Part shown: one piece after another, positions 4,409-24,850 of the stretch | Position numbering within the stretch: the stretch's first letter is position 1 | Layout: each line of letters starts with the position of its first letter | Made by a program: the position numbers and the translations under genes | Notes under the pieces: generated by a model | Seen by the model: only the letters and a program-made list of their open reading frames with translations | Told to the model about the DNA's origin: nothing | The model's database searches: none | Assembly: GCA_028278255.1 (NCBI GenBank) | Contig: JANQER010000241.1 | Span: 1 to 39,434 of the forward strand | DNA: 39,434 nucleotides | Origin: Elusimicrobiota bacterium | GTDB taxonomy: Bacteria; Elusimicrobiota; Elusimicrobia; FEN-1173 | Direction: 5' to 3'

Positions 4409-4567
4409 GGGAGCAAAGAGCAAAGGGCATAGAGCAAAGAGAAATTCATGGTCGTAAGGAAGGGATGCCCATCCCGATCAGATGAAAGAAAAATTATAGG
4501 GGCGGGCCTTGTGCAGGCCTCTGCATCTGCCGAGGGGAAGGGGCAGATGTCCGCCTAAGGAACAAAA

Positions 4568-5617: not shown

Positions 5618-5620
5618 ACA

Positions 5621-5720
5621 GGACGGGCTTGCCCGTCCTATTGACGAAATTGGCGCCCTTCGGGCGCGAAATTGGCTGGCTTAGCCAGCGAAATAGGTCC
5701 ACCTTCAGTGGACGAAATTT
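5621..5720 (+). repeat. REP/BIME-like array of short hairpins separated by conserved CGAAAT(T/A)G spacers
   Basis: GGACGGGCTTGCCCGTCC is followed by G-GCGCCC-TTC-GGGCGC-G AAATT, G-GCTGGC-TTA-GCCAGC-G AAATA and G-GTCCAC-CTTCA-GTGGAC-G AAATTT. The stems differ in sequence but keep 6-bp complementarity. The same family occurs in inverse orientation at 31529-31599 and 37754-37846. Confidence 0.85.
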
Positions 5721-5768
5721 GAAAACCTAGGCAGTAAAACATTTGAAAAATTTCTGGAGGAAATTTTT

Positions 5769-6299
5769 ATGAACATCAAATGCCCGTCTTGTGGTTTTGA
5801 AAGCATTGAAGGTGAAGACCGGTGCCAGCAATGTTTGCATTCGCTCATGCAAAGAGATATCCCGCGCCCCAAAAAGGACGACAACATCCAGCATGCCATA
5901 CTCACGGCGCCTGTGTCAGACCTTCTCACAGGACATGACCTTCTGGTGTGCAGTCCCACAGATCCCCTGAACAAAATTGTCAAAATATTCAAAAAAGACA
6001 ATAAAAACTGCGTCCTGGTTTATCAAAAGAAAAAATTAGTGGGCATTCTCAGCAACAGGGACCTCCTGCTGAAACTGGCAGGAAAAGACCAAGACCTCTC
6101 CAAACTCAAAGTGGAAGACATCATGACCAAAGACCCTGGCTGCGTCAAGCCGGAAGACCCCATTGCTTATGCCATCAACAAAATGGCATTGGGCCGGTAC
6201 CGCCACGTCCCGGTCCTCCGGGACGACGGCACCCCGGTCAGCATCCTGGTCATCAAAGATGTGCTCCAACACCTTTCCAAGCGAATAAAAAGCAAATAA
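5769..6299 (+). CDS. zinc-ribbon plus CBS-pair protein
   Basis: 176 aa. The N-terminus carries CPSCGFESIEGEDRCQQC (a four-Cys ribbon). Two CBS repeats follow (KIVKIFKKDNKNCVLVYQKKKLVGILSNRD and AINKMALGRYRHVPVLRDDGTPVSILVIKD). Confidence 0.75.
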   Translation: MNIKCPSCGFESIEGEDRCQQCLHSLMQRDIPRPKKDDNIQHAILTAPVSDLLTGHDLLVCSPTDPLNKIVKIFKKDNKNCVLVYQKKKLVGILSNRDLLLKLAGKDQDLSKLKVEDIMTKDPGCVKPEDPIAYAINKMALGRYRHVPVLRDDGTPVSILVIKDVLQHLSKRIKSK

Positions 6300-6318
6300 A
6301 AAAGAAGACAACATCCTC

Positions 6319-6353
6319 TTGACAAAACATATATATATGACTATAATAGTCAT
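6319..6353 (+). promoter_or_regulatory. consensus sigma-70-type promoter with overlapping palindromic operator upstream of the antitoxin gene
   Basis: TTGACA (6319-6324), a 17-nt spacer, then TATAAT (6342-6347). The perfect 17-bp palindrome ATGACTATAATAGTCAT (6337-6353) overlaps the -10 box. GGAGG lies 9 nt before the ATG at 6382. Confidence 0.65.
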
Positions 6354-6381
6354 ATACAATAAGTCATGGAGGTCATAAATA

Positions 6382-6672
6382 ATGAACGCTGCTATTTACC
6401 AGCTCAAAGCCTCTCTCAGCGAATATTTGGCCCATGTCAAACACGGGGAAGAACTCATTATCACAGAACGAGGCAAACCAGTGGCTGTTATCAGCCCTCT
6501 CAAAAGGGAGGCATCACACACAACCGCGCATCTCATGGAACTTGAACGCGCCGGGCTCATAAAAACGGCTTCTTCACCTCTCACATCAGAATTCTGGCAC
6601 CTGACCCGGCCAAAAGATTTGTCCGATAAAGCCCAAAAATATCTCATGGATGAAAGGAGCGAAGACCGGTGA
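6382..6672 (+). CDS. type II antitoxin, Phd/YefM family
   Basis: 96 aa. MNAAIYQLKASLSEYLAHVKHGEELIITERGKPVAVISPL is the typical Phd/YefM N-terminal fold. Its stop overlaps the toxin start (GTGA at 6669-6672). Confidence 0.8.
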   Translation: MNAAIYQLKASLSEYLAHVKHGEELIITERGKPVAVISPLKREASHTTAHLMELERAGLIKTASSPLTSEFWHLTRPKDLSDKAQKYLMDERSEDR

Positions 6673-7100
6673 AGTTTTGGGATGCTTCTGCTATATTGCC
6701 CTTATGCTTACAAGAATCCCATTCAATGGCCATGAAAGAAATCATTGAAGATGACCGGCAGATTGTGATTTGGTGGGGAACACCTATTGAATGTTCATCA
6801 GCCTTTGCCAGACTCAGACGTGAAAAAATTCTTTCAGAAATTGAAGAAGAAAGATCCAGAGACATCCTCAAGATGCTCTTGCAGGCATGCCATGAAATAC
6901 AACCCACTGACAATATCCGAAAAAAAGCCGAGAGAATCCTTCGCCTTCACCCATTAAGATCAGCGGATTCTCTTCAACTCGCTGCTGCCCTGGTCTGGGC
7001 TCAAGACCAGCCAGACGATCATGATTTCGTCTGCCTGGACAAACGCCTCATTCATGCGGCGCATCTTGAAGGCTTTCATATTCTGCCCCATTCAACCTAA
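6669..7100 (+). CDS. vapC: PIN-domain ribonuclease toxin (VapC family)
   Basis: 143 aa with a GTG start overlapping the antitoxin stop. The N-terminal acidic residue sits in FWDASAILPL. A later LRSADSLQLAAAL motif is typical of PIN domains. Confidence 0.82.
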   Translation: MKFWDASAILPLCLQESHSMAMKEIIEDDRQIVIWWGTPIECSSAFARLRREKILSEIEEERSRDILKMLLQACHEIQPTDNIRKKAERILRLHPLRSADSLQLAAALVWAQDQPDDHDFVCLDKRLIHAAHLEGFHILPHST

Positions 7101-7112
7101 AACCAATGCAGT

Positions 7113-7838
7113 TTAGGCCAAAGAATTGATTTCACAAAGACCACGGGCCTCAATGCGGGGTGAAATGGGAAACGTTTTATCGCCTGGATAAATAATGGTG
7201 AGATGATTCAAAGACAGATCCTCTAACGCTGTGTTCATGGATTTGGTAACTCGGGGTTTATCCGTATACTTGAATTCGTATCCGAAACGTTTTCCATCTT
7301 TCATAATAAGAAGATCCAATTCCGCTTGATTATGGGTCCCCCAGAAAAATGTCTCATCAGGCGTTGCCCTATGTGCGCGAATCACTTCTTCAAGGGCAAA
7401 ACCTTCCCAGGAAGCTCCTATTTTAGGGTGATGCAGCAGATCATCTTCCGAGGTTATCCCAAGAAGATTGTGAAGTATCCCCGAATCACGAATATACATT
7501 TTCGGTGACTTAACCTGCCGTTTGCCGATATTTTCGATCCAGGGACGCAATTCCCGCACCATAAATGTCCCGATAAGAATATCAATGTATTTTCTTACGG
7601 TGGTATGGGCCATCCCCAGAGAACGACCAAGCTCAGCAGTGTTCATGATTTGTCCATGATAATGACAAAGCATCATCCAAAAACGTCTCAACATCTCAGT
7701 CGGCACCTGAATCCCCAGGGATGGGATGTCCCTTTCAAGATAGGTTGAAATATATGATTTTCGCCACACATACCCGGTCTTTTCCGTATCAGCAAGGAAT
7801 GAAAGAGGAAAACCTCCTTCCTCTTCATCCCAAATTTT
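7113..7838 (-). pseudogene. 5'-truncated remnant of an AAA+ ATPase with a DUF4143 domain (COG1373-like); the ATPase half is missing
   Basis: Track ORF 7113..7769 (GTG start) reads WRKSYISTYLERDIP...TAELGRSLGMAHTTVRKYIDIL...VKSPKMYIRDSGILHNLLG. This is the winged-helix/DUF4143 C-terminal half. In the same frame, family-like sequence (WDEEEGGFPLSFLADTEKTGYV) continues upstream to a TGA at 7839-7841 with no start codon. No Walker A region exists, because the giant ORF ends at 7866. Confidence 0.65.
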
Positions 7839-7865
7839 TCATTCGAGAAATTCGGGCTAAAAGTA

Positions 7866-10800
7866 TTATGCATTTGAGCCAATCATCTCAGACAACTTTC
7901 TCAACCGATCAAACTCATCTGTGGCAATCTTAATTACCATGTTCCCTATGATCTGAAGAAGCACAGCTGCCTGACTGTATTGCGGGGTCACTGTCCAATT
8001 CATAATCACTGGTGACAGCACTTGCAATTGAACACCCTTACGCTCAAAATCCATGCTCTGATACTTCTGATCACTAACAAGCCTTTCAATCACTTTATCC
8101 ACAGAACATTTCACCTCATTGTTTGACATAACAATCAGCCTTTGACTTTCTGAACCCAAAGCCTCTGAAACAGACAATTTATCGTCATCCGTCACCACAA
8201 CCACTGGCGCTTCTCCATTTTTTTTCAGCAATGTCTTTGCCACAGTTAAAGCCTCTGTGCGTTCTATGTTCAACAAATTCCCTGGCACATGCACCACACA
8301 AGGCTGATCTGACTTTATTTCATTAATTGAATGAATTTTGGCTTTTTCATGCGCGGCCAAACCAAACCCAAACTCAAACCCTTGTGCCATCAGCGCCAAA
8401 ATCTTCTGCGGACTCAAATCTTCTACAATATCCAGAGTTCTCTGCAACACGCCTATATAAAAGACCATTTCCCTCTTCTGCCCCAAACCCGACATCAAGC
8501 CCACATTTAAACCCAAAACCCTGATCAACGCATCACACTCTTTTGCGCGCTCTTCTATGACTTTCACATTGCTTCTGATTCTGCTCTGCAAAACACCCAA
8601 AACCTCTCTCAACTCCTCTAAATTCTGAAAATTCATCCCGCGCACTAAGCCCTCAGTGGCTTGGAATTGACCCTCTCCCTTGATGGGAGAGGGCAGGGTG
8701 AGGGTGTCCAACAATCCTTCCACATTCTGCCAAGACACATCCTCTGCCTCTTCACTCTCCCCCAAAAATAACCGCAGTTTAACTTGGTTTTTCACTTGCA
8801 CCGGATCAATATCCACCTCAATTCTCGGATTCAATTTCTCCGTCTCATCAGACAGCTTCTTCACCTGAGGCAAAACAGTCTGATCCAAAACATATTGAAT
8901 CCATTCCTCTTCACTCAAAGAAGATTTTCCCAAAGGCAAAGTGATAACAAACGTGGTGCCATGGTCTTGAGGATATTCATCCACATGCCGGGTCTTAAAA
9001 GAAATCGTCCCGTTGCACCTCTCAATGCATTTCTTTGCAATATGCAGTCCAAGACCTCTTGACAAATTTCTGCCTCCTGTATCCAACTTGCTTGACACCC
9101 CGCGCTCAAAAACAGAATCTCTTATTTTTAATGGAATGCCCTGGGCATTGTCAGAAATTCTTATTTCCATGTCTTTCCCTTGATTCACAATTTCAGTCTC
9201 AATTCTCATTTTTCCTGAAATATCCTGGAGTTCAACCTCTCTTTCACTTATTTGTAATCCTTGTTTTTCCAATAACCCACGCATGGTTATATCATCTTTC
9301 ATTTCAGCAATAAAGTACTGCGCATTTTGAATGATATTTGCCAATGCCCGAAACAATGCCAATTTATTCGTTTTTAAAATTTGATGACCGCCGCCATAAT
9401 GAATGACCGTGTTCTCACGATTCACAACCTCATGTGCATGCCCGGCAAAAATCACATCAAACAAGTGATCCAAATCCACTAATTCTTCTTCATCACGAAA
9501 TGCTGCAAAATAATCTCTTAACACATACTGAACAAAAACAATCTTCAGTGCATCCTCCTTAGCTGAAAAATCATCCACAGAAAGTTCTTGATATATCTTT
9601 GTTAATTTTTCTCTTGCCATCTCAAATAAATAAACCTCGTCAATTTTACTTAAAATATTTTTTATTTGCTTGTTCGCCTTATTCACATCAGCAATTGTTT
9701 TTCCATTTTGAACTTGCTCCAAAAATGTTTTTAAATTTTTAGACAAGTCATAAAACCCACTCATCCAATTCCTATCCGCTTGTACCAAAGCATTATCATC
9801 AGACAAAAACTTCAATTGAGCCCCAAGAACACTCATCGGGCTCGTTAAATCATGCGCATTCGCTGCTGCCGCCAGTTTGGCCTCTTTCAGGGTCCTGCCA
9901 TTCATATCTTGAACACCAACAAGATAAACCAAATTATGACTGTATTCAGGATCAGGGAATGTTTCAATAATATCCAGCCCATTGAACGTCAACACCTCTT
10001 CCACAACGCCATTGCTTTCTTCTCCCCACAAAACCAAAAAACCTTCCTCAATCCCAGGCAATTGAGAGACTCCTTGAGCAAGTTCTGAAATAAAACTTCC
10101 TCTATCCCCGTCATGAAATCCAGCCAATTTTTTCGGTCTCATCACCCCCTGTCTCACATACTCTTTTCTAATCACCTCAAAACAAGTCAAAAGTGCTTCA
10201 TCTGACAAAGATTCCAGATCAGTGGCACCAGTGAGTCGTTTAAGCTTACCAATGCGTTCTTTTCTTTCCTCTTCAGTCAACGTCTCAAAAAATGGAGAAT
10301 TTGAACAAACCAGTGCTATTTTTTTATCACCAAAAACCGGTTCCCTTTTTTCATTCAGAACATTATTCCCGACTTTGGCCGTCACCCTAAAACCTGCCTG
10401 TTTGGCAAAAAATCTCATATTGGCAACTTCAAAAGGATTAATGCCCACTGCATAAATGTCCCGATTTGAATTTGTCCCAAGCCAAGCCACCCAAGCATCA
10501 ATCCCAGTCCCTGGCCCCACCACCAAAACACCACCTTCTTTATCCTCACCCAAAGCCTGGCCTACTGAGTAAACAGTCAACATATAAATGCGATCCGCTA
10601 AATAATTGTCACCAGCAGCCGGCGAATAAACTGTGGGAAAAACAGGAAATATGACCCGGGGATTTTCACTCTGACTGTCATAAATTTTTTCAAGCGCTTG
10701 ACCAAACCCCCTATCTTCAAGGCCAAACTCAACCAAACGCAACGCACCTTGTTCAACCCCCACAAACTCAGCAAAAACAAATGGCTTATTCTCTGGCTCA

Positions 10801-13800
10801 GGAGCTTTTATCACATACTCTGAAAGCCCTCTTTCCTCCCTATATCGTGTGATAGCCTCCTTAGATTGAGCACACTCTTTCTGAAATCTGATCCATTTAT
10901 TGATGGCTTGCTCATCATCAAAACCTGGTATCTCAAAATAGAATTCAGAAAAATCAAAATAATGATAGGGACACTCATCCCCATCGGAATGCTCTCCTAA
11001 AAGCTCTTCAGACACCACAGGGAAAATAGAAATCAAATATCCATTTTCATCAAACAACAATTCAAACCCACGTGTTGGTCCTAACTCATTAGACAACACA
11101 TCAATCCCCACTGGTGGATCAACAGGATTTTGACGTTCAGGGACACGAACCCTCATCACAGTCAAGCCGCTTGCCTGATCCACCTCTTCCTCAACCAACT
11201 CTGCCTGATGAAGTTCAAGCGCTTTTAACAACTCATAAGCCGGCATGTTCTTAACCTTTTCCAACAGATCATCAATATTGTGTCCATGGACGTTTCCTTG
11301 TTCCACACACATCAAATAATAAGGGCTGATCCCCCACAAAGAATCTTCTCCAATATTTCTTTCATAGGCAAAATAATCAGTGCTTGTCCCTCCGCCAGTG
11401 GAGATTGTCAAAACAGGCATATTTAACCCAGTCTCTCCTATCTCCCTCTCTTCCTGTTGCAGAGCCACCCTCTTTTCTTCATCCAAATCTAAAGCAGCTT
11501 TGACCAAGGGGGCTGTTTCACCCCCGCTCACAAAAGCAAATAATTCCCCATTGTCAATTCGTCCTTTAATATGATGTGCAATGGCATAGCTGCCCCTATG
11601 ATACGGTTCATCTTCAAAGTTCCCCTGTGGACTGTTCCAATACACAGCCTCCACTTCATCCAAAGCTCTTTTATATTTTTCAATGGTTCTTGGGCCAATA
11701 TCCAAGCCATCCACATCATCCTCTGCCAAAACAACCTCCACACCTCTTATCTTCAAATTTCCAATCCATTTGTTGTATTGCCTTTCCTGAACAATCCCAG
11801 CCAGTTTACCTCCAATAAGAATTTTATCTCCTTTTCGCAGTTTCTCTGAAAAATCTTGAATTAAAGGGATTTTGTCTTCTTTAATCCCGCCAAAAATAGC
11901 AGCCATAGAGCCACGCTTATCATGTTTTATGTATCTCAACATTTTTTGATGAATAAGCAGCTCCCTCTCCATCCAAAATCCCTTGACAGAAGGCATCGAC
12001 GTTTTCAACATCTCCACCACAGTGGTGTCAGACCGATGCGAAACCGGGAATCCATCTAAAACAAACACATCCCCTAATCTTGACACTTGATACGCCAATG
12101 CCTCTCTTTCAGCCGGGTCATCCGACTGCTCACGCCAATCAAATCTCGTATTATCAAGCATGGCCACATCACCCGCGCTCATGCCATGGATGTGATCGAT
12201 GATCTCGTCTGTTACAACAGCGTATCTTTTCTGACGGACTTCTTTGCCCCGCATCAAGTGAACATCTCTGTTCATAAGCTGACTCACTGCATTTCTCACA
12301 TGAGAAATATCATAGGCTTCTTCGACCCCCTCACCTGATGGACGACCAGAATGTGTCACAAGCACCACTTTTCCACCATTATTTAAAATATACTGCATTG
12401 TATTCACAGAGGCATTCAACCGGATATCATCAATTTTCTCTTCTTTTGGATCAAAATGCACATCATTAAAATCAACCCTCACCACAAAAGTTTTCCCCTT
12501 GATCGCATGAGGCGGAACCATATAAAGAGACATGGCATTGCTTTGTCTCAGCTCATCTATAAAACCACGGACCATTTCTGAGTCAAGATTGTCTCCCAAC
12601 CGCTCAATTTCCTCCTCCCATTGATACCCCCATATCCCAAGAAAGAAATCTCTGAATTCAGGAGGGACATTCCCCTGAAAACCAAGACTTTTCACATAAA
12701 GAGACATGGCTTTAAGTGCATTGGGCCAATGGGATTTCATCTCTGGATCCATCAAAATCTGCAAACAATTTCTTATATTGAATGTCAAAATATCTGGTAA
12801 TTGAGAATGATCTTCTCCACCTTTATTCTCATTCATACTTGCCATGGCCATAGACAATGGATATTCAACCTCATAAGGCCGTGCAGATCCTTGACCAGAG
12901 CCAGAGGGCTGATTAATCAGGGCGGGGGCAAGCCCCGCCCCTACGGATATATTCTTAAAATAATCTTTTGGGGAAACCTGATCAATACCGGTTATCCAAT
13001 TCACCACATACTGAATAGGCATATATTTCATCCACCCCATGGACGGCAACAATTCTTGCACAGGAATCCATCTGATTTCAAATTTCATCCCATGAAACAA
13101 ACCAGGCCAAGCACGTAACCCAAATTTTTCAGTTGGGGCCGTTGGACCGAGACGAAGGAGGCCGTGACTTTTTCGACGACAAAAGCGAGCGCAATGCCGT
13201 AAGCATTGGGCGAACTTGTGGAGGACTAAAAAGTCCGGCATCATTTGTCGAATCCAGGCACCCAATTGAAAAGTTTGGGTTAACACTCTTTTCCCTGTTA
13301 TTGATTTCTTTTGAACAGATTTCAGCTTAATCCTGGTAATGGCCCTGGTGCCATCTTTACTGTTTTCAGCTGTGATGGTCGCTCCCATGGCTTCCAAAGC
13401 CATGCGCGCAGCAGGCATGCCCACACCCCCAGAATAAAAAGAATCAGATTCTGTATCCTCAGTATTCACTTGAGCTGCCCGTCTTGCATAATCCACTTGA
13501 AACAATGGCTGAAGCCCCATCCAATCATGCAAAGGAGACAAAAATTTTCGAGGAAATGCTTTTGGGTTTGACACAATTAATTCAACAAATCCATTACCAG
13601 CTTCAACCACAGACAAATCAATGGACTTTAATGCTTTTTCCATACCTTGCTCTTGATTGACTTTAAGTGCATTTTCATAAATCCATTCAAGAGCAGCACA
13701 AAGCAACATGGGATCAGCCAATACTTTTTGATGGCCAATAGTCAAGTTATCAAGCTTAAACTCTCCATTTTTTGTATGAAACTCATGATTATTAAGCAAT

Positions 13801-16800
13801 TTTTTCAAATCTATTTCTTGAATTTGCGCCAATTTTGGATCAAACATGCGCAAAACGATACCCACAATATCAAGACCCCGCTTAATTGTGACAAGATAGC
13901 CTTTCCCTTTTTGGATGTTCTGCATTTTGCCCCATAATTTCTGCAAATATGATTGATAATCCTTTAACCATTTAATCCATATGCGGTACAATTCATCAAC
14001 ATCTTTTTTCCTAAATTGTCCTTTTAACAAAAAGCTCCTGACAAAACCAATCACCTGGGCATGATAAATTCTAAACTGTTCATCAAGACCACGAAATTGT
14101 TTTTCTAATAATTTCTTTTGCTCAGGATCACTTCGAAACACATAACCCAACACAAATGACATATTTGCCATTTGATTCATTAAAGCAAACCGTCCGCCAT
14201 GCCCTGTGACTGCAACAGAATTAACAATAAGCTGCGCTTTTTCATCATATGACTTTTGAACTGCATACCAAAAATCTCTGGCAAAACGCATGGCCACCAC
14301 AACACCAAAAGACAAAAAAATCAATGGCAATGAATAATGAGACAACACAAACACCTGCAAAATAGCATCAGCAGAAAACAAATCCAACCAATACAAGCCA
14401 AGCATAAAAACAGCATTTAAAACCAATGTCAAAACAAACCGAGACTGCACAAAAGAAGACACATAAAATCGAATTAAAAAACCCCGCTGTTTTTTGCCCA
14501 TCTCCTTTGCAGCACGCAGCAAACGCGCTTTTGCTATGACAAGAATGCCAAACTCACTTAAAATTTCCAGCCAAACCCTTTTCCAATCAAGCACATTTTT
14601 TTTGTACTGCACCAAACACCTCATCAATGTATGGCAAAACAAAAACACTGGCACAGACCACATCAACCCAATCACAAAAGCTGTCCCAGGATCAAACCCA
14701 TATGACATGAATATCACAGGCAACCCAATCAACCCACCCACACGAAACACAGCTTCTTCCCAAACCCCCAACAACAAATAATAAATCCCTCTTCCTTGCC
14801 ATGTTTTAAATCTTTTCATAGGCATAACAAAAGGCTCTAAAATATCAGCTGCAGCTGACCTGGCACCATGGCCATAAACAGATCCAAACACATTCACAAT
14901 AAATTGATTTTGAAAAATAAATGATTGAATCATTTCTAGCCAATAACTTAAACTCTCAACCAAAGCAAATCTGAATAAAGAAGACTTAAACAACACCAAC
15001 ACATAATCCTGGCCATTGACTGTGATGTCTGCTGTATGAATGTCATGCTCAAAACCCAATTTTTCCAACTGATGCTCAGCCATGGACAATTTTTCTTTTG
15101 TCATAAGCGCCAAATGGCATCTGGTTTTGCCCAATTTGTATCGAAAAACACTCAAAAACCCATTGTCTGTGATTTTTTGCTTAATCTCCATTTTAAATGA
15201 TTGTTCAATATCCAAAACCTCTGTCAAAGCCTTATCCCCAGCTTCAAGTTCAGACATATCTGTGTTTTTTAAAGCTGATTCAAATGCTGGCACAAAAAAA
15301 CGGTTCAATGATTGAAAAACCTGGCCTCGCATGGCTTTGATTTGAGACACATCCTGCACCATCACACGTTCAGCAGCCAAAAAAATCTTTTCTCCAGCCA
15401 ACATTTTCTCCAATGGAATCGGATCTCTGGCAAACACATTTAAATAATCATGGTTTTTGGGCACAGCTGTGATTTGAGGCGTGACCACCATATAAGAAGC
15501 ATTTTTTTGATGTAAAAGTTCTGTTATCCCTTTTGTGTGAAAGCCACCAGCCACTAAAACAGAAATAACAGGCAATTGATCCGTTGTCATCGGCAATGGC
15601 TGCTTCCCTAAGGCCACTGCACGGGCTGTCCCTACACCTGTCTCTTTGCCCTTTGCTCTTTGCTTGTTGAGCAAATTATCAACCAATGATTTGTTCCGCT
15701 TAATGGCCAATGCGCAAAATTGCTCAAAAGGCTTCAACAAGTTGCGGGGCAGGTCTTGGTCTATGGTCTTTGGGTTCTTGCCGCCAGGTATGATCCCAGT
15801 TTGTCGGATGGGACTATCGTCTTTGGTCTGTTGCTTATATTCTTCCCAATCCTTTGGGGTCATTTGATTGTGAATCAATTTTTCCAGCAAATGCACATAC
15901 CGGGTGGCTGTGACCAATTTTTTCTGTTCAGGTGTCACAGCCAAGGATTGTGCCACTGCTTTTTCCAATTGGGACAATTCTTCTAACAATTGATTGGGAT
16001 TCATTTTTTCTGACAATTTGACATAGTCAATATAAGCATTGAATTGAGCCAGAGATTTTAAGTCCATGCCCTGTTTTTGGCAAAGCCGGCGCAATAAATC
16101 ATAATATGCGCCATAAGCCATGCGGCCTGTTTTATAATCCATGCTTTGCTGAACAAGATGATTCAATTGATCAGATGATAATTTGGCACACAGCTTTTTA
16201 ATCAGTGCATGCCGCTGTTTTTCCACAACACCAAAATCAAGACTGTCTTCCCTGTCCAATGCCTGAATCAAGAGACAACTGTTTTTGAATTTTTGATTTT
16301 TGATTTGTGCTTTTTGATTGAGAAGCAAATACTTCACATATTGACCCAAGGCCTCTTCATGATTCTGATAAGCAGTGGCTTTCTTCTCATACTGTTTAAG
16401 TTCAGGAGAATAAACTTTTTGTTTTTGAGCCATAAGACTGCTTTTAAGATCTGACACAAGGGCTTGGACTTTGGTTTTGTTTTTAAGTGAGTCTTTGAAC
16501 GCCTGAATATTGGTATGATAGGTGGACAGGTCTTCAATTCCCCAAAGTTCAACAAGAGACTGATTGTCAATCGTCAGTGCAGAATATTCTGGTCCGCCAA
16601 TGTATCCTTCTTTTAAAAAATAATCAGCCAACCCTTTTGTGATATCATCATCAGAAAAATCCCTATACGCGTCCACAGCAAAAGCCCCGCTGGCGCCTTC
16701 AAGACCGATCAAAATGGATTTTTGATTTTTGATTTGCTGGAGTTCAAGCTCTCCCGTCTTTGATCTTTGGTCTTCGGCCTTTGGCCTTCGCTCTGTGGAC

Positions 16801-17291
16801 TTTGGACTTTGGTCTTTGGTCTTCGGTCTTCGGTCTTCGGTCTGACTGATATTGTCAATTATTTTTGCAATATTGCGTTGCGCTTCCTCAATTCCATGGG
16901 CATCCTGAATATGAACCACAAAAGGCGCATTAGGATCTGCTGACACATGTATTTCCCGAACAGAACCATAGACAGAAACAAGGCTGGCCAATCTATTGCC
17001 AACAGTATGAGCAGGGGACAATGAAGGAACCGAACTGCGGCTATTGATTGGGAAAGTTTGATGGGATGCCTTAGTGGACAGCTGTTGAATGGGTTGAACA
17101 GGGGAACTGGACAACAAAGCCAATTGAGCCTTTAAATGATTTTGCCGTTGGCCTCTCTGATCAAGCGCTTGCCTGCGTTCTTTCCAAAAACCGATTTCAG
17201 CAGAATACACGCCAATGACATTGGTGAGCACCAACACCACAGCCAAAAAAACACTCAATACTGATTTTGTCAATGTGCTAATAGTTATCAT
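7866..17291 (-). CDS. giant multidomain membrane protein (3141 aa): signal anchor, large ectodomain, CPBP-type membrane protease motifs, degenerate GHKL ATPase, phosphoglycerate kinase domain, SAM-dependent methyltransferase domain, HisKA/HATPase_c histidine kinase, unassigned C-terminus
   Basis: One stop-free frame. Motifs, N to C:
- hydrophobic N-terminus, aa 1-30
- EEAVFR (nt 14742-14759) and FLFCH within a polytopic block
- YENALK (nt 13662-13679) plus GGVGMPAARMALEAMG (nt 13383-13430)
- PGK motifs from RVDFN to STGGG (nt 11361-12533)
- VLVVGPGTGID (nt 10497-10529) and SNSPFF (nt 10287-10304)
- H-box NAHDLTSPMS (His codon 9852-9854), N-box LANIIQNAQ, G1 SDNAQGI, G2 RGLGLHIA
The ATG at 17291 has no obvious Shine-Dalgarno sequence. 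A TATAAT (reverse strand, 17299-17304) lies 7 nt upstream. Confidence 0.85.
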   Translation of the reverse strand: MITISTLTKSVLSVFLAVVLVLTNVIGVYSAEIGFWKERRQALDQRGQRQNHLKAQLALLSSSPVQPIQQLSTKASHQTFPINSRSSVPSLSPAHTVGNRLASLVSVYGSVREIHVSADPNAPFVVHIQDAHGIEEAQRNIAKIIDNISQTEDRRPKTKDQSPKSTERRPKAEDQRSKTGELELQQIKNQKSILIGLEGASGAFAVDAYRDFSDDDITKGLADYFLKEGYIGGPEYSALTIDNQSLVELWGIEDLSTYHTNIQAFKDSLKNKTKVQALVSDLKSSLMAQKQKVYSPELKQYEKKATAYQNHEEALGQYVKYLLLNQKAQIKNQKFKNSCLLIQALDREDSLDFGVVEKQRHALIKKLCAKLSSDQLNHLVQQSMDYKTGRMAYGAYYDLLRRLCQKQGMDLKSLAQFNAYIDYVKLSEKMNPNQLLEELSQLEKAVAQSLAVTPEQKKLVTATRYVHLLEKLIHNQMTPKDWEEYKQQTKDDSPIRQTGIIPGGKNPKTIDQDLPRNLLKPFEQFCALAIKRNKSLVDNLLNKQRAKGKETGVGTARAVALGKQPLPMTTDQLPVISVLVAGGFHTKGITELLHQKNASYMVVTPQITAVPKNHDYLNVFARDPIPLEKMLAGEKIFLAAERVMVQDVSQIKAMRGQVFQSLNRFFVPAFESALKNTDMSELEAGDKALTEVLDIEQSFKMEIKQKITDNGFLSVFRYKLGKTRCHLALMTKEKLSMAEHQLEKLGFEHDIHTADITVNGQDYVLVLFKSSLFRFALVESLSYWLEMIQSFIFQNQFIVNVFGSVYGHGARSAAADILEPFVMPMKRFKTWQGRGIYYLLLGVWEEAVFRVGGLIGLPVIFMSYGFDPGTAFVIGLMWSVPVFLFCHTLMRCLVQYKKNVLDWKRVWLEILSEFGILVIAKARLLRAAKEMGKKQRGFLIRFYVSSFVQSRFVLTLVLNAVFMLGLYWLDLFSADAILQVFVLSHYSLPLIFLSFGVVVAMRFARDFWYAVQKSYDEKAQLIVNSVAVTGHGGRFALMNQMANMSFVLGYVFRSDPEQKKLLEKQFRGLDEQFRIYHAQVIGFVRSFLLKGQFRKKDVDELYRIWIKWLKDYQSYLQKLWGKMQNIQKGKGYLVTIKRGLDIVGIVLRMFDPKLAQIQEIDLKKLLNNHEFHTKNGEFKLDNLTIGHQKVLADPMLLCAALEWIYENALKVNQEQGMEKALKSIDLSVVEAGNGFVELIVSNPKAFPRKFLSPLHDWMGLQPLFQVDYARRAAQVNTEDTESDSFYSGGVGMPAARMALEAMGATITAENSKDGTRAITRIKLKSVQKKSITGKRVLTQTFQLGAWIRQMMPDFLVLHKFAQCLRHCARFCRRKSHGLLRLGPTAPTEKFGLRAWPGLFHGMKFEIRWIPVQELLPSMGWMKYMPIQYVVNWITGIDQVSPKDYFKNISVGAGLAPALINQPSGSGQGSARPYEVEYPLSMAMASMNENKGGEDHSQLPDILTFNIRNCLQILMDPEMKSHWPNALKAMSLYVKSLGFQGNVPPEFRDFFLGIWGYQWEEEIERLGDNLDSEMVRGFIDELRQSNAMSLYMVPPHAIKGKTFVVRVDFNDVHFDPKEEKIDDIRLNASVNTMQYILNNGGKVVLVTHSGRPSGEGVEEAYDISHVRNAVSQLMNRDVHLMRGKEVRQKRYAVVTDEIIDHIHGMSAGDVAMLDNTRFDWREQSDDPAEREALAYQVSRLGDVFVLDGFPVSHRSDTTVVEMLKTSMPSVKGFWMERELLIHQKMLRYIKHDKRGSMAAIFGGIKEDKIPLIQDFSEKLRKGDKILIGGKLAGIVQERQYNKWIGNLKIRGVEVVLAEDDVDGLDIGPRTIEKYKRALDEVEAVYWNSPQGNFEDEPYHRGSYAIAHHIKGRIDNGELFAFVSGGETAPLVKAALDLDEEKRVALQQEEREIGETGLNMPVLTISTGGGTSTDYFAYERNIGEDSLWGISPYYLMCVEQGNVHGHNIDDLLEKVKNMPAYELLKALELHQAELVEEEVDQASGLTVMRVRVPERQNPVDPPVGIDVLSNELGPTRGFELLFDENGYLISIFPVVSEELLGEHSDGDECPYHYFDFSEFYFEIPGFDDEQAINKWIRFQKECAQSKEAITRYREERGLSEYVIKAPEPENKPFVFAEFVGVEQGALRLVEFGLEDRGFGQALEKIYDSQSENPRVIFPVFPTVYSPAAGDNYLADRIYMLTVYSVGQALGEDKEGGVLVVGPGTGIDAWVAWLGTNSNRDIYAVGINPFEVANMRFFAKQAGFRVTAKVGNNVLNEKREPVFGDKKIALVCSNSPFFETLTEEERKERIGKLKRLTGATDLESLSDEALLTCFEVIRKEYVRQGVMRPKKLAGFHDGDRGSFISELAQGVSQLPGIEEGFLVLWGEESNGVVEEVLTFNGLDIIETFPDPEYSHNLVYLVGVQDMNGRTLKEAKLAAAANAHDLTSPMSVLGAQLKFLSDDNALVQADRNWMSGFYDLSKNLKTFLEQVQNGKTIADVNKANKQIKNILSKIDEVYLFEMAREKLTKIYQELSVDDFSAKEDALKIVFVQYVLRDYFAAFRDEEELVDLDHLFDVIFAGHAHEVVNRENTVIHYGGGHQILKTNKLALFRALANIIQNAQYFIAEMKDDITMRGLLEKQGLQISEREVELQDISGKMRIETEIVNQGKDMEIRISDNAQGIPLKIRDSVFERGVSSKLDTGGRNLSRGLGLHIAKKCIERCNGTISFKTRHVDEYPQDHGTTFVITLPLGKSSLSEEEWIQYVLDQTVLPQVKKLSDETEKLNPRIEVDIDPVQVKNQVKLRLFLGESEEAEDVSWQNVEGLLDTLTLPSPIKGEGQFQATEGLVRGMNFQNLEELREVLGVLQSRIRSNVKVIEERAKECDALIRVLGLNVGLMSGLGQKREMVFYIGVLQRTLDIVEDLSPQKILALMAQGFEFGFGLAAHEKAKIHSINEIKSDQPCVVHVPGNLLNIERTEALTVAKTLLKKNGEAPVVVVTDDDKLSVSEALGSESQRLIVMSNNEVKCSVDKVIERLVSDQKYQSMDFERKGVQLQVLSPVIMNWTVTPQYSQAAVLLQIIGNMVIKIATDEFDRLRKLSEMIGSNA
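12920..12941. repeat. GC-rich palindrome GGGCGGGGCAAGCCCCGCCCC read through in frame inside the giant ORF
   Basis: It is near-identical to 37708-37728 inside the glcD-glcE-like ORF. Both are translated as AGLAPA. Confidence 0.8.
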
Positions 17292-17417
17292 GTTAATTAT
17301 TATAGTGATTTGATCTTAAGAACACCTTAATAAGTTGTAACATTTATGTAAAATTAAAATAAGCACTTTAATTTAGAAATTAATTTAGAAATTAAAATCA
17401 AAAATGTGCTTTTTGTG

Positions 17418-17445
17418 TTGATAATTAAATAAATTATGGTATACT
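17418..17445 (+). promoter_or_regulatory. candidate sigma-70 promoter with extended -10 in the giant-ORF/trxB intergenic region
   Basis: TTGATA (17418-17423), a 16-nt spacer ending in TGG, then TATACT (17440-17445). No long ORF follows until trxB at 17820. Confidence 0.4.
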
Positions 17446-17587
17446 TTATATGAATAAAAGATGTGCACTTTTTTATGCTGACACCTTACATTTTTTCATC
17501 TGCCCAATGGATACCTGAATTCCTTGAATCTTAGCCCGAATTTCTCTGACAAAAGGGACTGTTGCGAAAGTCAAATAGGACTAACTT

Positions 17588-17621
17588 GTCTCCCTTCTCC
17601 CGCTTGCGGGAGAAGGGAGAC
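17588..17621. other. perfect 15-bp stem / 4-nt loop hairpin, flanked by a second outer inverted repeat
   Basis: The hairpin is GTCTCCCTTCTCCCG-CTTG-CGGGAGAAGGGAGAC, followed by GACTGATTTT. The outer arms GTTGCGAAA..AATAGG (17561-17579) and CCTATTTCGCAAC (17672-17684) can also pair. Confidence 0.6.
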
Positions 17622-17819
17622 GACTGATTTTCCCTCTTATATCTCTTAAGTAGCCCTAAAAATTCTTTAAGCCTATTTCGCAACTGATATAAGACATTAC
17701 AATATTGATACTTTTTTATAAATTTTATATTGTGTGTCATATAATTTCTTTTGTGCTTGTTTCTTGGTTATTGGTTATTATTTGGTTATTGTTTCTTGGA
17801 ACTTGTAATTTTTAAGACT

Positions 17820-18758
17820 ATGAACACACGCAATGTGATTATTATTGGATCAGGTCCGGCAGGATTTACAGCTGCTATTTATGCGGCGCGGGCCAATTTG
17901 CAGCCTGTGGTGATTGCCGGATTCATGAAGGGCGGTCAGTCAGGCGGGCAGCTCATGACCACCACCGATGTGGGCAACTTTCCCGGATTTCCCGAAGGCA
18001 TAGAAGGGCCTGCGCTCATGAACCGCATCAGAAAACAGGCGCTCAACTATGACACGGAAGTTTTTGACAAAGATGTTGTCAAAGTTGACTTTTCCGAGAC
18101 GCCTTTTAAAATCTGGACTGAAGACGAAGAAATGTCCGCCAAAACCGTGATCATCTGCACCGGGGCTTCAGCCAAGAGATTCCACACGGAAGCTGAAAAT
18201 CGTTTTTGGAACAAAGGCATCTCAGCCTGCGCCACATGTGACGGGGCCCTGCCTCTCTTTCGCAACAAACCCATTGTGGTGATTGGCGGCGGGGACACAG
18301 CCATGGAAGAAGCCCTTTATTTGTCGCGGTTCGGTTCCCAGATTATCCTGGTGCACCGCAGAGAACAATTCCGCGCGTCAAACATCATGCTGCAGCATGT
18401 GAAAAACAACAAAAAAATCATATTGAAAACCCCTTATGTCTTGGAAGACACAATGGGAAGCCATTTTCTGGAAAGAGTCAAGCTTAAAAATGTCAGCACA
18501 AAACAAAAAGAAGAGGTCCCGGCCAATGGGCTTTTTCTGGCCATAGGGCATCAACCCAATACAGACATTTTTAAAGGCCAGATTGATCTGGAAGAAACAG
18601 ATTATATCAAAACCGACGGCCACACCCGCACCAATGTGCCTGGTGTTTTTGCTGCAGGCGACTGCGTGGACCATGTGTACCGCCAGGCCATAACAGCCGC
18701 TGGCATGGGCTGCATGGCCGCCCTCCAAGCCCAAAAACACCTACAAAACAACAACTAG
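17820..18758 (+). CDS. trxB: thioredoxin-disulfide reductase
   Basis: The conserved start MNTRNVIIIGSGPAGFTAAIYAARA is at ATG 17820. The track ORF starts at TTG 17751 and reads through a GGTTATT repeat. Present are the redox-active CATCDG, the NADPH motif VIGGGDTAMEEA and GVFAAGD. Confidence 0.93.
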   Translation: MNTRNVIIIGSGPAGFTAAIYAARANLQPVVIAGFMKGGQSGGQLMTTTDVGNFPGFPEGIEGPALMNRIRKQALNYDTEVFDKDVVKVDFSETPFKIWTEDEEMSAKTVIICTGASAKRFHTEAENRFWNKGISACATCDGALPLFRNKPIVVIGGGDTAMEEALYLSRFGSQIILVHRREQFRASNIMLQHVKNNKKIILKTPYVLEDTMGSHFLERVKLKNVSTKQKEEVPANGLFLAIGHQPNTDIFKGQIDLEETDYIKTDGHTRTNVPGVFAAGDCVDHVYRQAITAAGMGCMAALQAQKHLQNNN

Positions 18759-18805
18759 TTTCCCGTCCATTTTAAAAAATTATGCTCCTGTTCAGGTCTC
18801 CTCTG

Positions 18806-18919
18806 TTTTTTTTGTAATTGCCTGATTGATCAGGCGCATTTCTCAATAGACAATAAACAATTATTGAAAAACGCCCGATAAATCTATCCATATCCGGCTT
18901 TAGACGGAGGGCAATGACA
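18806..18919. repeat. MITE-like ~110-bp element with terminal inverted repeats TTTTGTAATTGCC / GGCAATGACA
   Basis: The left end is TTTTGTAATTGCCTGATTGATCAGGCG. The right part is AAAAACGCCCGATAAATCTATCCATATCCGGCTTTAGACGGAGGGCAATGACA. The same composite element occurs at 35428-35533, and a rearranged version at 36867-37030. Confidence 0.75.
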
Positions 18920-19076
18920 GGGACATGAGCAGTTATTTTAAATTTTCTTTTTTGTTTAGAATTTAGAGTTTAAAACCCCTCCCCTCCCCCTTTTTCATCC
19001 CATTGATATAAAGTTTACCGCCATAACTCCTATATATATTATATGAGACACCCCATGAAGATGAAAATTTGTTCAT

Positions 19077-21221
19077 GTGAAGAGGTATGCTGTGGATAAT
19101 ATAACAGCCACAAACTTATTCTTAATGGCCGGGCTTATAGACAAGGATGAGGTCAAAACCGTTCTTGAGGAAAACAGCAAGAAATCCGGTGAAAAGATTG
19201 AAGACACCATGGTCCGCCTGCACTTTGCTTCGGAGCAGGAGCTGACCAAAGTCTATGCCAAGCATTTGGGGGTGCCTTATATTGAGCTGAGCTGCATCCG
19301 GGCTGACCAAAAAGCCATTTCCTCAGTGCCCATGACGCTGGCCAACCAGCACAATGTTCTTCCTGTATGGATAGAAGACAACACCCTATTTCTTGCCATG
19401 GAAAACCCTGAAAACAAAACAGCCATTGAATCAGTCCAATCCACCACAGGCATGAATGTCAAACCCCATATGTGCGCGCCAATTGATATTGCCTCTGCCA
19501 TTGATGAATATTATCATGTGGATGAATCCATTAACGAATACATCAAAAATGTGTCTTACCGGGAAAGCATTGAACTGCTCTCAGGCAGTGTGTCTTCAGC
19601 GCCGGCCTCAAAGCAAGACGAAGCTGTTCAGCATTTCCTCAATGCGGTTCTGTTCCAAAGCCTCTCCAATCACGCCGAATCAGTGATGCTTCAACCCAGA
19701 CAAAAAGACCTATTGATTCTCAATCAAATTGACGGCATATCCTATGAAGCCATGCATGCGCCCAAATGGATCATCAAGCCATTCGTGTCTTATATCAAAG
19801 CACAATGCCGCATGCCCGCTTCTGAAACCAGTGAACAGCAGCAAGGCCAAATAAAAATCCGCGTGGAAGAAAATGTGTTTGAATGCAAAATAATTGTTCA
19901 ATCCGGTGTTTACGGCAGCCATGTGTACATACGGTTTATTAATCCACATAAACGTTTTTTGGCCCTGGATGAACTGGGCTTCAGTCCTGACCTTGTGTCT
20001 GATATCAAACACACAATACACAGCGCCAAAGGAACTCTTTTGCTCTGCGGCACCTCAGGCAGCGGCAGGACAACCACCCTATACAGTCTGCTGGCAGACG
20101 CTCTCCGGCACAAACAAATCGTGACTTTGGAAAATCCGGTTGAACACCCTCTGGCAGGCGCTAAACAAGTATGTGCGAATGAATCCAGTGGAATATCACG
20201 CTCCCTGTATCTGGAAACAATTTTCAGCGTGCAGCAGGACATTGTTTATGCCGGAGACATCCTTGACAGAAAAATCGCTGAAAATATACTGCAGGCCTCA
20301 TTAAAAAACCGTTTGGTCATGGGATCCATGCACGCAAAAAGTTCCATTGCGGGCATCCGGCGCCTGTTGGACATGCCGGTCCCGCCTGACCTGGCCGCGA
20401 CTGGCCTGTGCGGCGTCCTGACGCAAAAGCTTGTTCGCACCCTCTGCGATCATTGCCGGACCCCGCATGAGCCCAGCGAAGAGGATGCTCAAAAAATTCA
20501 GGCCCTCATTGGCCGGGAACCGGATTTTGTTTTGTACAAAGGCAAGGGGTGCGTCAAATGCCGCCGCACCGGATACCAAGGACGAATTGGGATATTCGAA
20601 TTTTTGAAAATCACTGATCCTGTACGCGCCATCATCAGACAAAACCCGGACAGCGCCCAATTAAAAGAAGCTGTTGAAAAAAACACCATGAAAACGCTTC
20701 TGAATGATGCCATGGACAAACTTCAGCAGGGCATCACCACGTGGGAAGAAATCAAGCGGGTGATTCTCACTGACTGCGATGATCTCCCTGCTGCTTCAGG
20801 GGATGACTCACTTGCCGCTTCATTGCCGGACACAAATGACTTCAAAGGATTCAAAATTCACATATGCGATGATGAACCGGCTGTGGCGCATCTCTTTGAA
20901 AAACATTTGAAGCATCAAGGTTTTTGCACAAATGTCTCTTACAACGGCAAACAAGCCCTTGAAAAGATCGCTGTTGAAAAGCCTCATCTGCTGGTCATTG
21001 ATGTCATGATGCCGGAACTGAACGGACTGGAAGTGATCAAAACACTGAAGCAAGACGTGACCACTGCTTTTATTCCCATTATGATCATTTCCAATAAAAA
21101 CACAGCCCGGGACAAGCTGAAAGGATACGAATCAGGCACAGACGATTATCTGCCAAAACCGTTTTTACCGCAAGAACTGCTGATCAGGGTAAAATCTTTG
21201 CTCAAAAGAGTATATGTATGA
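19077..21221 (+). CDS. GspE/PilB-family secretion/pilus ATPase homologue with degenerate catalytic motifs, fused to a C-terminal response-regulator receiver domain
   Basis: 714 aa with a GTG start.
- T2SSE_N-like N-terminus: LFLMAGLIDKDEV...FASEQELTKVYAKHLGVPYIEL
- Walker A reads GTSGSGRTTT (Arg codon AGG 20067-20069 where Lys is expected)
- Asp box LENPVE, Walker B region YAGDILD, His box GSMHAKS
- tetra-Cys CDHC...CVKC is retained
- REC domain about nt 20850-21215: ICDDEP, LLVIDVMMPELNG, IISNK, LPKPF. Confidence 0.85.
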   Translation: MKRYAVDNITATNLFLMAGLIDKDEVKTVLEENSKKSGEKIEDTMVRLHFASEQELTKVYAKHLGVPYIELSCIRADQKAISSVPMTLANQHNVLPVWIEDNTLFLAMENPENKTAIESVQSTTGMNVKPHMCAPIDIASAIDEYYHVDESINEYIKNVSYRESIELLSGSVSSAPASKQDEAVQHFLNAVLFQSLSNHAESVMLQPRQKDLLILNQIDGISYEAMHAPKWIIKPFVSYIKAQCRMPASETSEQQQGQIKIRVEENVFECKIIVQSGVYGSHVYIRFINPHKRFLALDELGFSPDLVSDIKHTIHSAKGTLLLCGTSGSGRTTTLYSLLADALRHKQIVTLENPVEHPLAGAKQVCANESSGISRSLYLETIFSVQQDIVYAGDILDRKIAENILQASLKNRLVMGSMHAKSSIAGIRRLLDMPVPPDLAATGLCGVLTQKLVRTLCDHCRTPHEPSEEDAQKIQALIGREPDFVLYKGKGCVKCRRTGYQGRIGIFEFLKITDPVRAIIRQNPDSAQLKEAVEKNTMKTLLNDAMDKLQQGITTWEEIKRVILTDCDDLPAASGDDSLAASLPDTNDFKGFKIHICDDEPAVAHLFEKHLKHQGFCTNVSYNGKQALEKIAVEKPHLLVIDVMMPELNGLEVIKTLKQDVTTAFIPIMIISNKNTARDKLKGYESGTDDYLPKPFLPQELLIRVKSLLKRVYV

Positions 21222-21311
21222 TGAGCAAAGGCCAATCCCATCCGGCGAGCAGGGACCATACCTCGCGGCATGGAGAGCATAGAGCATGGGAATTGACTGT
21301 TGGAGGATTTT

Positions 21312-24110: not shown

Positions 24111-24214
24111 CCCGGGTATACCGGGAATGTAAAATTCACTGGTGTGTATTAAAATGCAAAATAAAGATTTGAAATCTGCAAACAGCTTGTTTGCCGTCTA
24201 AACAAGGATTCACT

Positions 24215-24844: not shown

Positions 24845-24850
24845 GGAAAA

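Follow-up and report, generated by a model that had tools for sequence, protein, structure and literature searches.

The closest described counterparts of the protein reported here are giant multi-enzyme proteins of Omnitrophota. In the passages considered here, the Omnitrophota proteins of West-Roberts et al. (2023; bioRxiv 10.1101/2023.11.21.568195) are tens of kiloresidues long, contain many enzyme families and are encoded by genes of >90 kb. In the corresponding passages of a second preprint, Nielsen and Lui (2026; bioRxiv 10.64898/2026.06.07.730766) describe "class 1" multi-enzyme giants and "Archaeovorins" in a catalogue that begins at 10 kilo-amino acids (kaa), and a "multi-enzyme metabolic cluster" class with signalling, methyltransferase and sugar-metabolism modules. 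Elusimicrobiota have been noted in the literature as enriched in huge, uncharacterised proteins, and giant open reading frames (ORFs) have been linked to host-dependent lifestyles (Seymour et al., 2023). We analysed a 39,434-nucleotide stretch of DNA from an Elusimicrobiota bacterium (contig JANQER010000241.1 of assembly GCA_028278255.1, positions 1 to 39,434; "the window" hereafter), which includes a reverse-strand ORF encoding a protein of 3,141 residues ("the giant"). The giant very probably belongs to a family of long, mosaic membrane proteins, very large and apparently uncurated, in which a conserved head is followed by variable cargo. The gene and its N-terminal features are as follows (a slash marks the signal-peptidase-like site).

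7866..17291 (-): the whole ORF, 3,141 aa plus stop, one stop-free frame from the ATG at 17291
17199..17291 (-): leader, aa 1-31, with the hydrophobic core SVLSVFLAVVLVLTNVIGV, then a VYS/AE signal-peptidase-like (-3,-1) site, then FWxERR
15297..17006 (-): conserved head, aa 96-665, an alpha/beta core with HIQDAH (127-132), LEGA (197-200), R532 and GGFH (582-585)
15639..16529 (-): all-helical insertion within the head, ~aa 255-551 (helices H160-456 of the AlphaFold2 (AF2) model)
14982..15296 (-): post-head stretch, aa 666-770

A search of 5.8 billion clustered proteins recovered 106 relatives of 1.7-5.4 kaa, each of which matches the N-terminal ~640 residues of the giant only. The head is the sole region common to the giant and all 106 relatives, and it lies at their own N-termini too; individual BLAST alignments run on through the post-head stretch, to ~aa 767-770 in P0003, P0016 and P0021 and to aa 744 in P0010. 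A leader and a ~570-aa head were N-terminal in every relative examined (214 sequences). A head profile (alignment A1), run against 1.84 billion 50%-identity cluster representatives, matched 10,240 clusters at E<=1e-3, 9,111 at E<=1e-10 and 7,266 at E<=1e-30. Among the best 150 profile matches, all start within the first ~160 residues, in proteins of 0.5-7.6 kaa (maximum 7,623 aa). No Pfam or NCBIfam model reaches threshold on the head. An earlier note on this DNA, made from its letters, had marked the region as an "ectodomain"; it is itself a conserved domain family, which that note missed. Named relatives belong to Elusimicrobiota, Omnitrophota or Auribacterota or are an unclassified "bacterium," the nearest being Elusimicrobiota, and a contig search with the single giant protein found only four loci, all of them Elusimicrobiota.

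The leader of the giant is Sec-like, with a charged n-region, a hydrophobic core (hydropathy 2.5) and a (-3,-1) site. Elusimicrobiota relatives show the same layout (..YFFTNV..AHA/xE..FWxERR), and distant family members carry classical signal peptides. A database entry for the giant, P0001 (3,126 aa), aligns to residues 16-3141 and starts at a TTG 15 codons downstream; we prefer the ATG at 17291 because a charged n-region precedes the hydrophobic core in family N-termini.

Residues H132, E198, R532, G582, G583 and H585 of the head are invariant across all 215 aligned sequences, D130 is kept in 213 of them, and Q129 and Q138 are nearly invariant. An AF2 model of the head, built from 23 sequences, has a predicted local distance difference test (pLDDT) score of 78 and a predicted template modelling (pTM) score of 0.75. 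It shows a strand-helix core broken by the ~300-residue helical insertion, with the conserved motifs where strands run into helices. The head would appear to be an enzyme with an intact active site, and this case is stronger than the assignment to any particular superfamily. That assignment comes from the order of the invariant residues. In the giant, D130-x-H132, E198, R532 and H585 follow the TIKI order of acid-x-His, Glu, Arg and (G)xxH, and a signature of 2His/2Glu plus Arg has been described for RRSP, erythromycin esterase and ChaN of the TIKI superfamily (PMC6254334). Because this order matches the 2His/2acid plus Arg signature, we read the head as a hydrolase, and consider it an even call that the head is TIKI-like. 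As modelled, it shares with the TIKI hydrolases (Tiki, TraB/PrgY/GumN, ChaN, erythromycin esterases and RRSP) an alpha/beta core with the residues at strand ends and in the same order, and TIKI domains often carry appended domains. The ChaN model PF04187 matches 4 of the 23 heads (best E 6e-4) and a core-only construct (E 5.6e-5), in each case below the gathering score, and TraB_PrgY_gumN (PF01963) gives E 0.1. Where coordinates are available for core-only constructs, these Pfam matches align the Arg...GGFH segment with the C-terminal end of each profile. Unlike the TIKI hydrolases, the head has its core split by the insertion and returns no curated-threshold or significant fold match. A role as the constant N-terminus of giant mosaic proteins is a context undescribed for TIKI domains in the part of the TIKI literature covered here.

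Beyond the head, the Pfam sets of the 106 relatives differ (precomputed domains). PEP-utilising/PPDK domains occur in 12 of these proteins, Ser/Thr kinases in 7, an M48 peptidase together with an ABC1 kinase in 6 and PGM/PMM in 5. The cargo also includes PP2C, AAA+/VWA, glycosyltransferases, starch synthase, glycogen phosphorylase, 4-alpha-glucanotransferase, hexokinase and two FBPase types, as well as RelA/SpoT, HD, NUDIX, HAD, SecA, HPr+REC, an aminotransferase and glutamate dehydrogenase, among others. Every family listed is normally cytoplasmic, and typical surface or adhesion domains are absent from the list. Most family members are without any kinase. Phosphoglycerate kinase (PGK) occurs in 2 of the 214 relatives, P0321 and P0328, directly after the head, with PGM/PMM further on. 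In a set of 181 long members, the best partner covers 41% of the tail at the median and only 11% of the tail of the giant, which makes the giant one of the more unique members. Since the head is the signature of thousands of proteins with interchangeable cargo, the domain order of the giant is one combinatorial draw and not a purpose-built hub. The coupling of proteolysis to phosphotransfer in such a hub, as the earlier note had it, was pure inference. Several cargo sets, such as M48+ABC1 in six relatives, are kept although the heads are only 33-37% identical, a pattern that looks like old paralogy, and not like rapid cassette exchange.

The family resembles the Omnitrophota giants, as the passages considered describe them, in carrying many unrelated enzyme families on one chain, with none dominating, together with a leader and/or hydrophobic helices. 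The families listed there (HATPase_c, methyltransferases, PPDK_N, PGM/PMM, glycosyltransferases, NUDIX and HAD) overlap with those found here. Further likenesses in the same passages are mostly unique sequences, an origin in related phyla, genes of type II secretion systems (T2SS) or type IV pili (T4P) often nearby, and cytoplasm-type enzymes behind signal peptides. The Omnitrophota proteins differ in size (at least 10 kaa, against 3.1 kaa for the giant and 0.5-7.6 kaa for the sampled head family, which the published length cut-offs exclude). Those passages name no identifiable domain at their N-termini other than C39 or S8 peptidases, and there is no mention of a conserved ~570-aa head, a TIKI link or PGK cargo. 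The nearest named relatives of the giant are, moreover, Elusimicrobiota. We regard the head family as a smaller-sized relative or variant of the described mosaic giant proteins.

One uncurated ~570-aa head with invariant hydrolase-like residues is the hallmark of 7,000 or more clusters of multi-kiloresidue proteins from phyla that are poorly understood and often host-dependent. Its residues H132, E198, R532 and H585 give a concrete handle on the purpose of the huge mosaic proteins of these bacteria. Enzymes that depend on ATP, phosphoenolpyruvate (PEP) or S-adenosylmethionine (SAM) stand behind Sec-type leaders, so either topology predictions are wrong for the class or cytoplasmic chemistry is placed outside the cytoplasm. 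The family-defining head and this topology paradox are more interesting objects than a single fusion.

The head family can be multi-copy and clustered. At one locus (L006), three paralogues lie side by side at 2739-9749 (-), 10001-16774 (+) and 17006-23182 (-), encoding 2,336, 2,257 and 2,058 aa, and a gene for a cadherin/Big-domain surface protein adjoins them; the giant is the only head-family gene in its window. In two Elusimicrobia genomes (L008, 18882-24014, and L009, 20106-23276), a large cargo ORF overlaps the end of the head gene by ~20-70 nt. One of these ORFs encodes PPDK_N plus PEP-utilisers and the other RamC_N; they could be true splits, translational coupling or frameshifts. Stand-alone heads may also exist. 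P0260 (L011, 927-2753) is a head-only protein of 608 aa whose stop lies 334 nt before the contig end; other short head matches, e.g., P0228, are merely cut off by contig ends. Within the head of the giant, a charged low-complexity insertion (RRPKTKDQSPKSTERRPKAEDQRSK...) at aa 150-190 (window ~16722-16844) is not found in relatives and has pLDDT <50.

The cargo of the giant comprises these parts.

14265..14849 (-): CPBP-like membrane block, aa 815-1009: an opening ADILEP, then four firm hydrophobic helices
13323..13703 (-): GHKL-like remnant, aa 1197-1323, with N-box YENALK and a G2-like box, and no G1 box recognised by eye
11310..12797 (-): PGK-like module, aa 1499-1994 (PF00162; Pfam core from ~aa 1597)
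10257..10670 (-): methyltransferase-like module, aa ~2208-2345, bearing VLVVGPGTGID (motif I) and SNSPFF (motif IV-like)
8922..9884 (-): histidine-kinase core, aa 2470-2790, with H-box AHDLTSPMS (His2480), a long linker and HATPase_c at 2644-2788
7869..8921 (-): C-terminal region, aa 2791-3141, with a G+C content at third codon positions (GC3) of 0.50, above the rest of the gene

The PGK-like module is the best supported of these. PF00162 matches at E 6e-59 (200.3 bits; cut-off 27) along two stretches that cover both domains, and at 208.5 bits on the isolated segment; NCBIfam supports PGK, with the bifunctional PGK/TIM model as its best match. As in PGK and its fusions (e.g., PGK-TIM; P0162 is another PGK fusion protein), the Pfam match is full-length. 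The basic patch for 3-phosphoglycerate (3-PG) (R, D..R, HxGRP, NxRF, HR) is kept along with most nucleotide motifs (among them GGxK, WNxPxGxFE and STGGG), here as RVDFN, DDIR, HSGRP, NTRF, SHR, GGIK-EDK, WNSPQGNFE and STGGG. The module is probably an active kinase. Unlike ordinary PGKs, to which it is ~30% identical, it falls in a small clade with proteins 50-60% identical to it, P0108 (602 aa, 55% over giant residues 1499-1994) and P0109 (566 aa, 50%); P0110 (460 aa, from a Saganbacteria genome) is also near. A ~90-aa extension ahead of the PGK core is present in stand-alone relatives too, SGGE replaces GGGD, and ~45 residues of the nucleotide-binding C-domain are deleted. The extension, the deletion, the SGGE change and the divergent clade together make the substrate uncertain, and the module is unlikely to be a housekeeping enzyme. 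An annotation as "phosphoglycerate kinase" within such proteins should not count as a glycolytic enzyme. The earlier note was right about the family, though its "complete phosphoglycerate kinase" is not the canonical form.

Members of the divergent PGK clade, including P0108, P0109, P0110 and P0111, are stand-alone proteins of 460-602 aa annotated simply as phosphoglycerate kinase. P0108 has, by eye, an apparent hydrophobic N-terminal segment of its own. A 649-aa gene upstream of the stand-alone P0109 was considered as part of a split version of the giant and rejected, since it is unrelated to the giant.

The firm helices of the membrane block span residues 831-863, 868-896, 951-968 and 974-1009, and an insertion specific to the giant (903-948) contains one borderline hydrophobic helix (~aa 906-925, hydropathy 1.37). 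Copies of the block were found at quite different positions in P0002, P0021, P0023, P0028, P0036, P0053 (twice), P0056 and P0263. CPBP proteases are marked by EExxxR, FxxxH and HxxxN/D. The consensus of the aligned copies, EExxFR / FLFxH / HxxWD, has the layout of CPBP/Rce1 (PF02517), with a four-helix core bearing EExxxR in helix one, FxxxH in helix two and HxxxD in helix four. PF02517 weakly matches two of eight aligned copies, that of the giant and seven from relatives (best E 7.6e-4), and several copies in relatives are without motif 1. In a sub-threshold Pfam scan of ten overlapping giant segments, PF02517 gave no match to the giant copy even at E<=10, and the third motif of that copy is degenerate (H-Y-S-L-P against HxxWD/E in most aligned copies), with its D/N lost. 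An AF2 model of the block (pLDDT 69, pTM 0.56) returned no match against the PDB at E<=0.001 with Foldseek, and Rce1 was not among the 40 matches listed. Of the CPBP block proposed in the earlier note, EEAVFR (845-850), FLFCH (883-887) and the helices are present, without a hidden Markov model (HMM) match on this copy. Some 25 residues ahead of its first helix, the block also keeps in most copies an ADILxP motif (giant aa 815-820, window 14832-14849), which could be a recognition or cleavage site.

For the C-terminal kinase, HATPase_c (PF02518) is secure (E 1e-15; 58.5 bits, cut-off 26.4), and many NCBIfam sensor-kinase models agree. His2480 lies in place within NAHDLTSPMS; HisKA, which had been proposed alongside, gives no match on the giant at E<=10. 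The PDB kinase AdeS aligns weakly over the catalytic domain and the H-box, His on His (3.4 bits at the H-box). The layout recalls membrane sensor histidine kinases in its leader or first span, large domain, spans, H-box and HATPase_c, and in the receiver-domain proteins encoded nearby. It differs in that the kinase core lies 1,470 residues past the last membrane helix, behind unrelated enzymes, and in the HisKA undetected by HMM. The first GHKL region has its N-box (YENALK, 1205-1210) and a G2-like box (GGVGMPAARMALEAMG, 1288-1303), as the earlier note saw, and it stays under the HATPase_c threshold (E 0.027, 15.3 bits against 26.4) while covering profile positions 6-109 of 111. The class-I SAM methyltransferase proposed there likewise has its motifs (VLVVGPGTGID, 2255-2265; SNSPFF, 2330-2335), with no Pfam match to methyltransferase families at E<=10 and no PDB-sequence match on the giant. 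Homologues of this module occur inside P0230 and P0051, and the P0230 copy matches PrmA and MTS at E ~0.005, below threshold. Giant residues ~1330-1498, 1995-2207 and 2791-3141 have no match in Pfam, PDB sequences or the family, so the ~350 C-terminal residues stay unassignable, as had been said. PDB-sequence searches of aa 1001-1590, 1980-2650 and 2790-3141 found nothing below E 0.3. A homologue search with the concatenated unassigned regions returned 0 matches, not even the query itself, and is uninformative rather than a sign of absence.

Much of the rest of the earlier description is borne out. Translation from the ATG gives a single stop-free reverse-strand ORF of 3141 codons, all quoted motifs lie at the residues given, and the protein unites on one membrane-associated chain modules that are separate elsewhere. 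The gene is also A/T-richer than its neighbours (GC 0.414 and GC3 0.394, against GC 0.472 and GC3 0.516 in 20 pooled flanking genes). The domain order, said to be undescribed, was found in no other protein of the orthologue search: of 8,000 word-sharing candidates scored from the 5.8-billion-protein collection, only the giant itself covers >28% of the query, and there is no full-length orthologue among them. The statement of the earlier note that each motif set is diagnostic was too strong, as 4 of 6 module calls miss HMM thresholds; after the Pfam scan about one-third of the module list is confirmed (PGK and the C-terminal HATPase_c) and two-thirds is plausible. GC3 is 0.35-0.43 per segment across aa 1-2800 and 0.50 across the final ~340 aa. 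Codon usage of each segment correlates with that of the whole gene at r 0.84-0.92, and the gene differs from its flanks as one block. The ORF is genuine as far as can be judged from sequence. An origin of the long frame in tandem repeats or low complexity was rejected, since the modules are distinct and mostly unique.

Where the head and the cargo lie relative to the membrane is contested by the data themselves: the needs for ATP, PEP, SAM and phosphorelay partners indicate that the cargo works in the cytoplasm, and the leader features indicate export. The same conflict between leader and cofactors is noted for Omnitrophota giants in the passages considered (bioRxiv 10.64898/2026.06.07.730766; 10.1101/2023.11.21.568195). 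We favour, at slightly better than an even chance for the statement as a whole, family membership combined with an envelope hydrolase head, cargo at the inner face and module shuffling. The head would be the constant working part, an active hydrolase put at the cell envelope by the leader. It would be periplasmic, and the membrane block would bring the chain back into the cytoplasm, with the ATP- and SAM-dependent cargo tethered to the inner membrane face. In the giant, the cassettes run from the CPBP-like block through a degenerate GHKL domain, a divergent PGK-like module, an MTS/PrmA-like methyltransferase-like module and the histidine-kinase core to ~350 further residues. The kinase would be the sole unit able to relay a signal, and the cassettes would have been assembled through module shuffling within the family and not designed as one pathway.

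Several points weigh against this reading. P0321 and P0328 have a textbook signal peptide and no hydrophobic segment from head to PGK, so that head and ATP-dependent cargo share one membrane side there. The split topology needs an odd number of spans, and the giant shows four firm and one borderline: with four, head and cargo would lie on the same side; with five, the head would be outside and the cargo inside, the arrangement proposed in the earlier note. A hydropathy count of span parity in 199 members, too crude a method for the purpose, gave no pattern (first span cluster odd in 67 and even in 55, later clusters odd more often). For the head, Foldseek of the whole model against the PDB, dominated by the helical insert, had a best E of 0.6 and nothing significant, with returns that are coiled-coil or helical noise. 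Against PDB sequences, head and core profiles drew nothing but noise such as calmodulin and FliG, NCBIfam gave nothing relevant on head cores, and all Pfam matches to TIKI families on heads stay below gathering scores. The functions of all modules are read from sequence, and the integrity of the assembly from the contig. Taken singly, the split topology of the giant, head outside and cargo inside, is possible at somewhat under an even chance; a fully exported giant is unlikely, and one facing the cytoplasm throughout is less likely again.

An exported carrier or effector, which we regard as unlikely, would have a true Sec signal peptide, with head and cargo exported together, the helices dipping into the membrane as hairpins and the enzymes acting at the cell surface or within a host or prey cell; the TIKI-like head might possibly cut the chain into separate enzymes, as the MARTX cysteine-protease domain does. 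Leaders obey the (-3,-1) rule family-wide, distant members with a signal peptide and no other hydrophobic segment hold PGK and PMM on the side of the head, and the four firm spans of the giant leave both block flanks on one side. TIKI-fold domains serve as toxin effectors (PMC6254334). In the passages considered, many multi-enzyme giants of Omnitrophota come out of DeepTMHMM as "signal peptide + TM" (transmembrane), and their genes are often near T2SS/T4P genes. Here, two PilB-like ATPase genes lie 1.8 kb from the giant and two T2SSE genes 5 kb from P0069, but T2SS/T4P genes were not found in the four other contexts examined. The low GC3 of the giant relative to its neighbours, the truncated defence-gene remnant that adjoins it and the clustering of paralogues would also suit export. 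Polymorphic and MARTX toxins likewise combine a constant N-terminus with interchangeable C-terminal modules and clustered paralogues, and a protease-type domain could process the chain. The cargo, however, is made up of metabolic and signalling proteins, namely phosphorelay parts and enzymes of housekeeping type that depend on ATP, PEP or SAM, and not of toxins, and hydrophobic helices amid the modules would hinder release. No immunity-like gene, RHS or repeat-in-toxin (RTX) region, autoprocessing cysteine protease or secretion signal beyond the leader was seen, nor any sign of chain processing; the genes downstream of the giant, a truncated DUF4143/PDC-S01 remnant and a PIN protein, are not an immunity pair. 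It is a more distant prospect that leader and TIKI-like head form an unrecognised delivery and processing system, in which cytoplasmic enzymes are exported and freed by the head protease, perhaps with the CPBP-like block, at the envelope or in a partner cell. If true, small host-dependent bacteria would install their own metabolic and signalling enzymes in the host.

A scaffold facing the cytoplasm is less likely than the exported carrier. The leader would be an uncleaved anchor with its N-terminus outside, and head and cargo would lie on the inner face by way of helical hairpins as a membrane-tethered multi-enzyme assembly. No other topology supplies each kind of cargo with its cofactors in all members, including those without internal hydrophobic segments. 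Erythromycin esterases, a TIKI branch, are cytoplasmic; the hydrophobic helices are often closely paired; and the giant has 3-5 K/R after the hydrophobic core against 1 before it. In most relatives, by contrast, 2-5 K/R precede the core and an AxA-type site follows, which predicts the opposite orientation, and ChaN, TraB/PrgY and Tiki are extracytoplasmic. By far the least probable account is an artefact, either a chimera of assembly or a decaying gene no longer expressed as one protein. The contig is metagenome-assembled and its proteins are all singletons in the collection, a full-length orthologue was not found, some modules are degenerate (the first GHKL, the third CPBP motif), and the overlapping cargo ORF after the giant gene in two relatives could reflect frameshifts or true splits. 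Yet a 9.4-kb open frame at 41% GC cannot last without selection, GC3 and codon usage are alike over most modules and unlike the flanks, thousands of relatives have the head-plus-long-tail layout, and neither the catalytic residues of the head nor the PGK substrate patch nor the kinase His has been lost.

The neighbouring genes of the giant are ordinary chromosomal genes. One flank holds sucC, a CBS gene, korA/B, a second CBS gene, a PIN gene and a DUF4143 fragment; the other holds trxB, two PilB-like ATPases, CheC, CheY, REC-CheC, gcpE, an AI-2E transporter, SpoU, a rhomboid protein and polA. Four features of this neighbourhood are listed.

7113-7769 (-): DUF4143 ORF, whose match to PDC-S01 (a PADLOC candidate defence model) is confined to the C-terminal half of the model, positions ~198-411 of 422
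6669-7100 (+): PIN-domain gene, which adjoins the DUF4143 ORF
19077-21221 and 21300-23648 (+): tandem PilB-like ATPases (MshEN + T2SSE), each with a C-terminal receiver, the second with a zinc ribbon
24191-26362 (+): CheC-like, CheY and REC-CheC genes, a chemotaxis-type phosphatase set after the PilB-like pair

The DUF4143 ORF, which starts 96 nt from the stop codon of the giant, is a 5′-truncated remnant. This ORF and the PIN gene share the low GC3 of the giant (0.43 and 0.42, against ~0.52 in other neighbours), which hints at a rearranged or acquired segment. PADLOC placed no defence-system model on the giant. The pair of pilus-ATPase/receiver fusions beside a chemotaxis-type phosphatase set is unusual. 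An association of the family with T2SS/T4P ATPase genes was considered and set aside: such genes are near a family gene in 2 of 6 contexts (those of the giant and P0069), which is too few, post hoc and not significant.

An A/T-rich spacer of 460 nt (17292-17750) separates the giant gene from trxB. It contains a perfect, G+C-rich 17-bp hairpin (17586-17623), which lies between divergent genes and so at an odd site for a terminator, and two tandem copies of the 12-mer TAATTTCTAAAT (~17369-17394). A TATAAT at 17299-17304 ends 7 nt before the ATG of the giant, with no Shine-Dalgarno sequence; the giant mRNA may therefore be leaderless.

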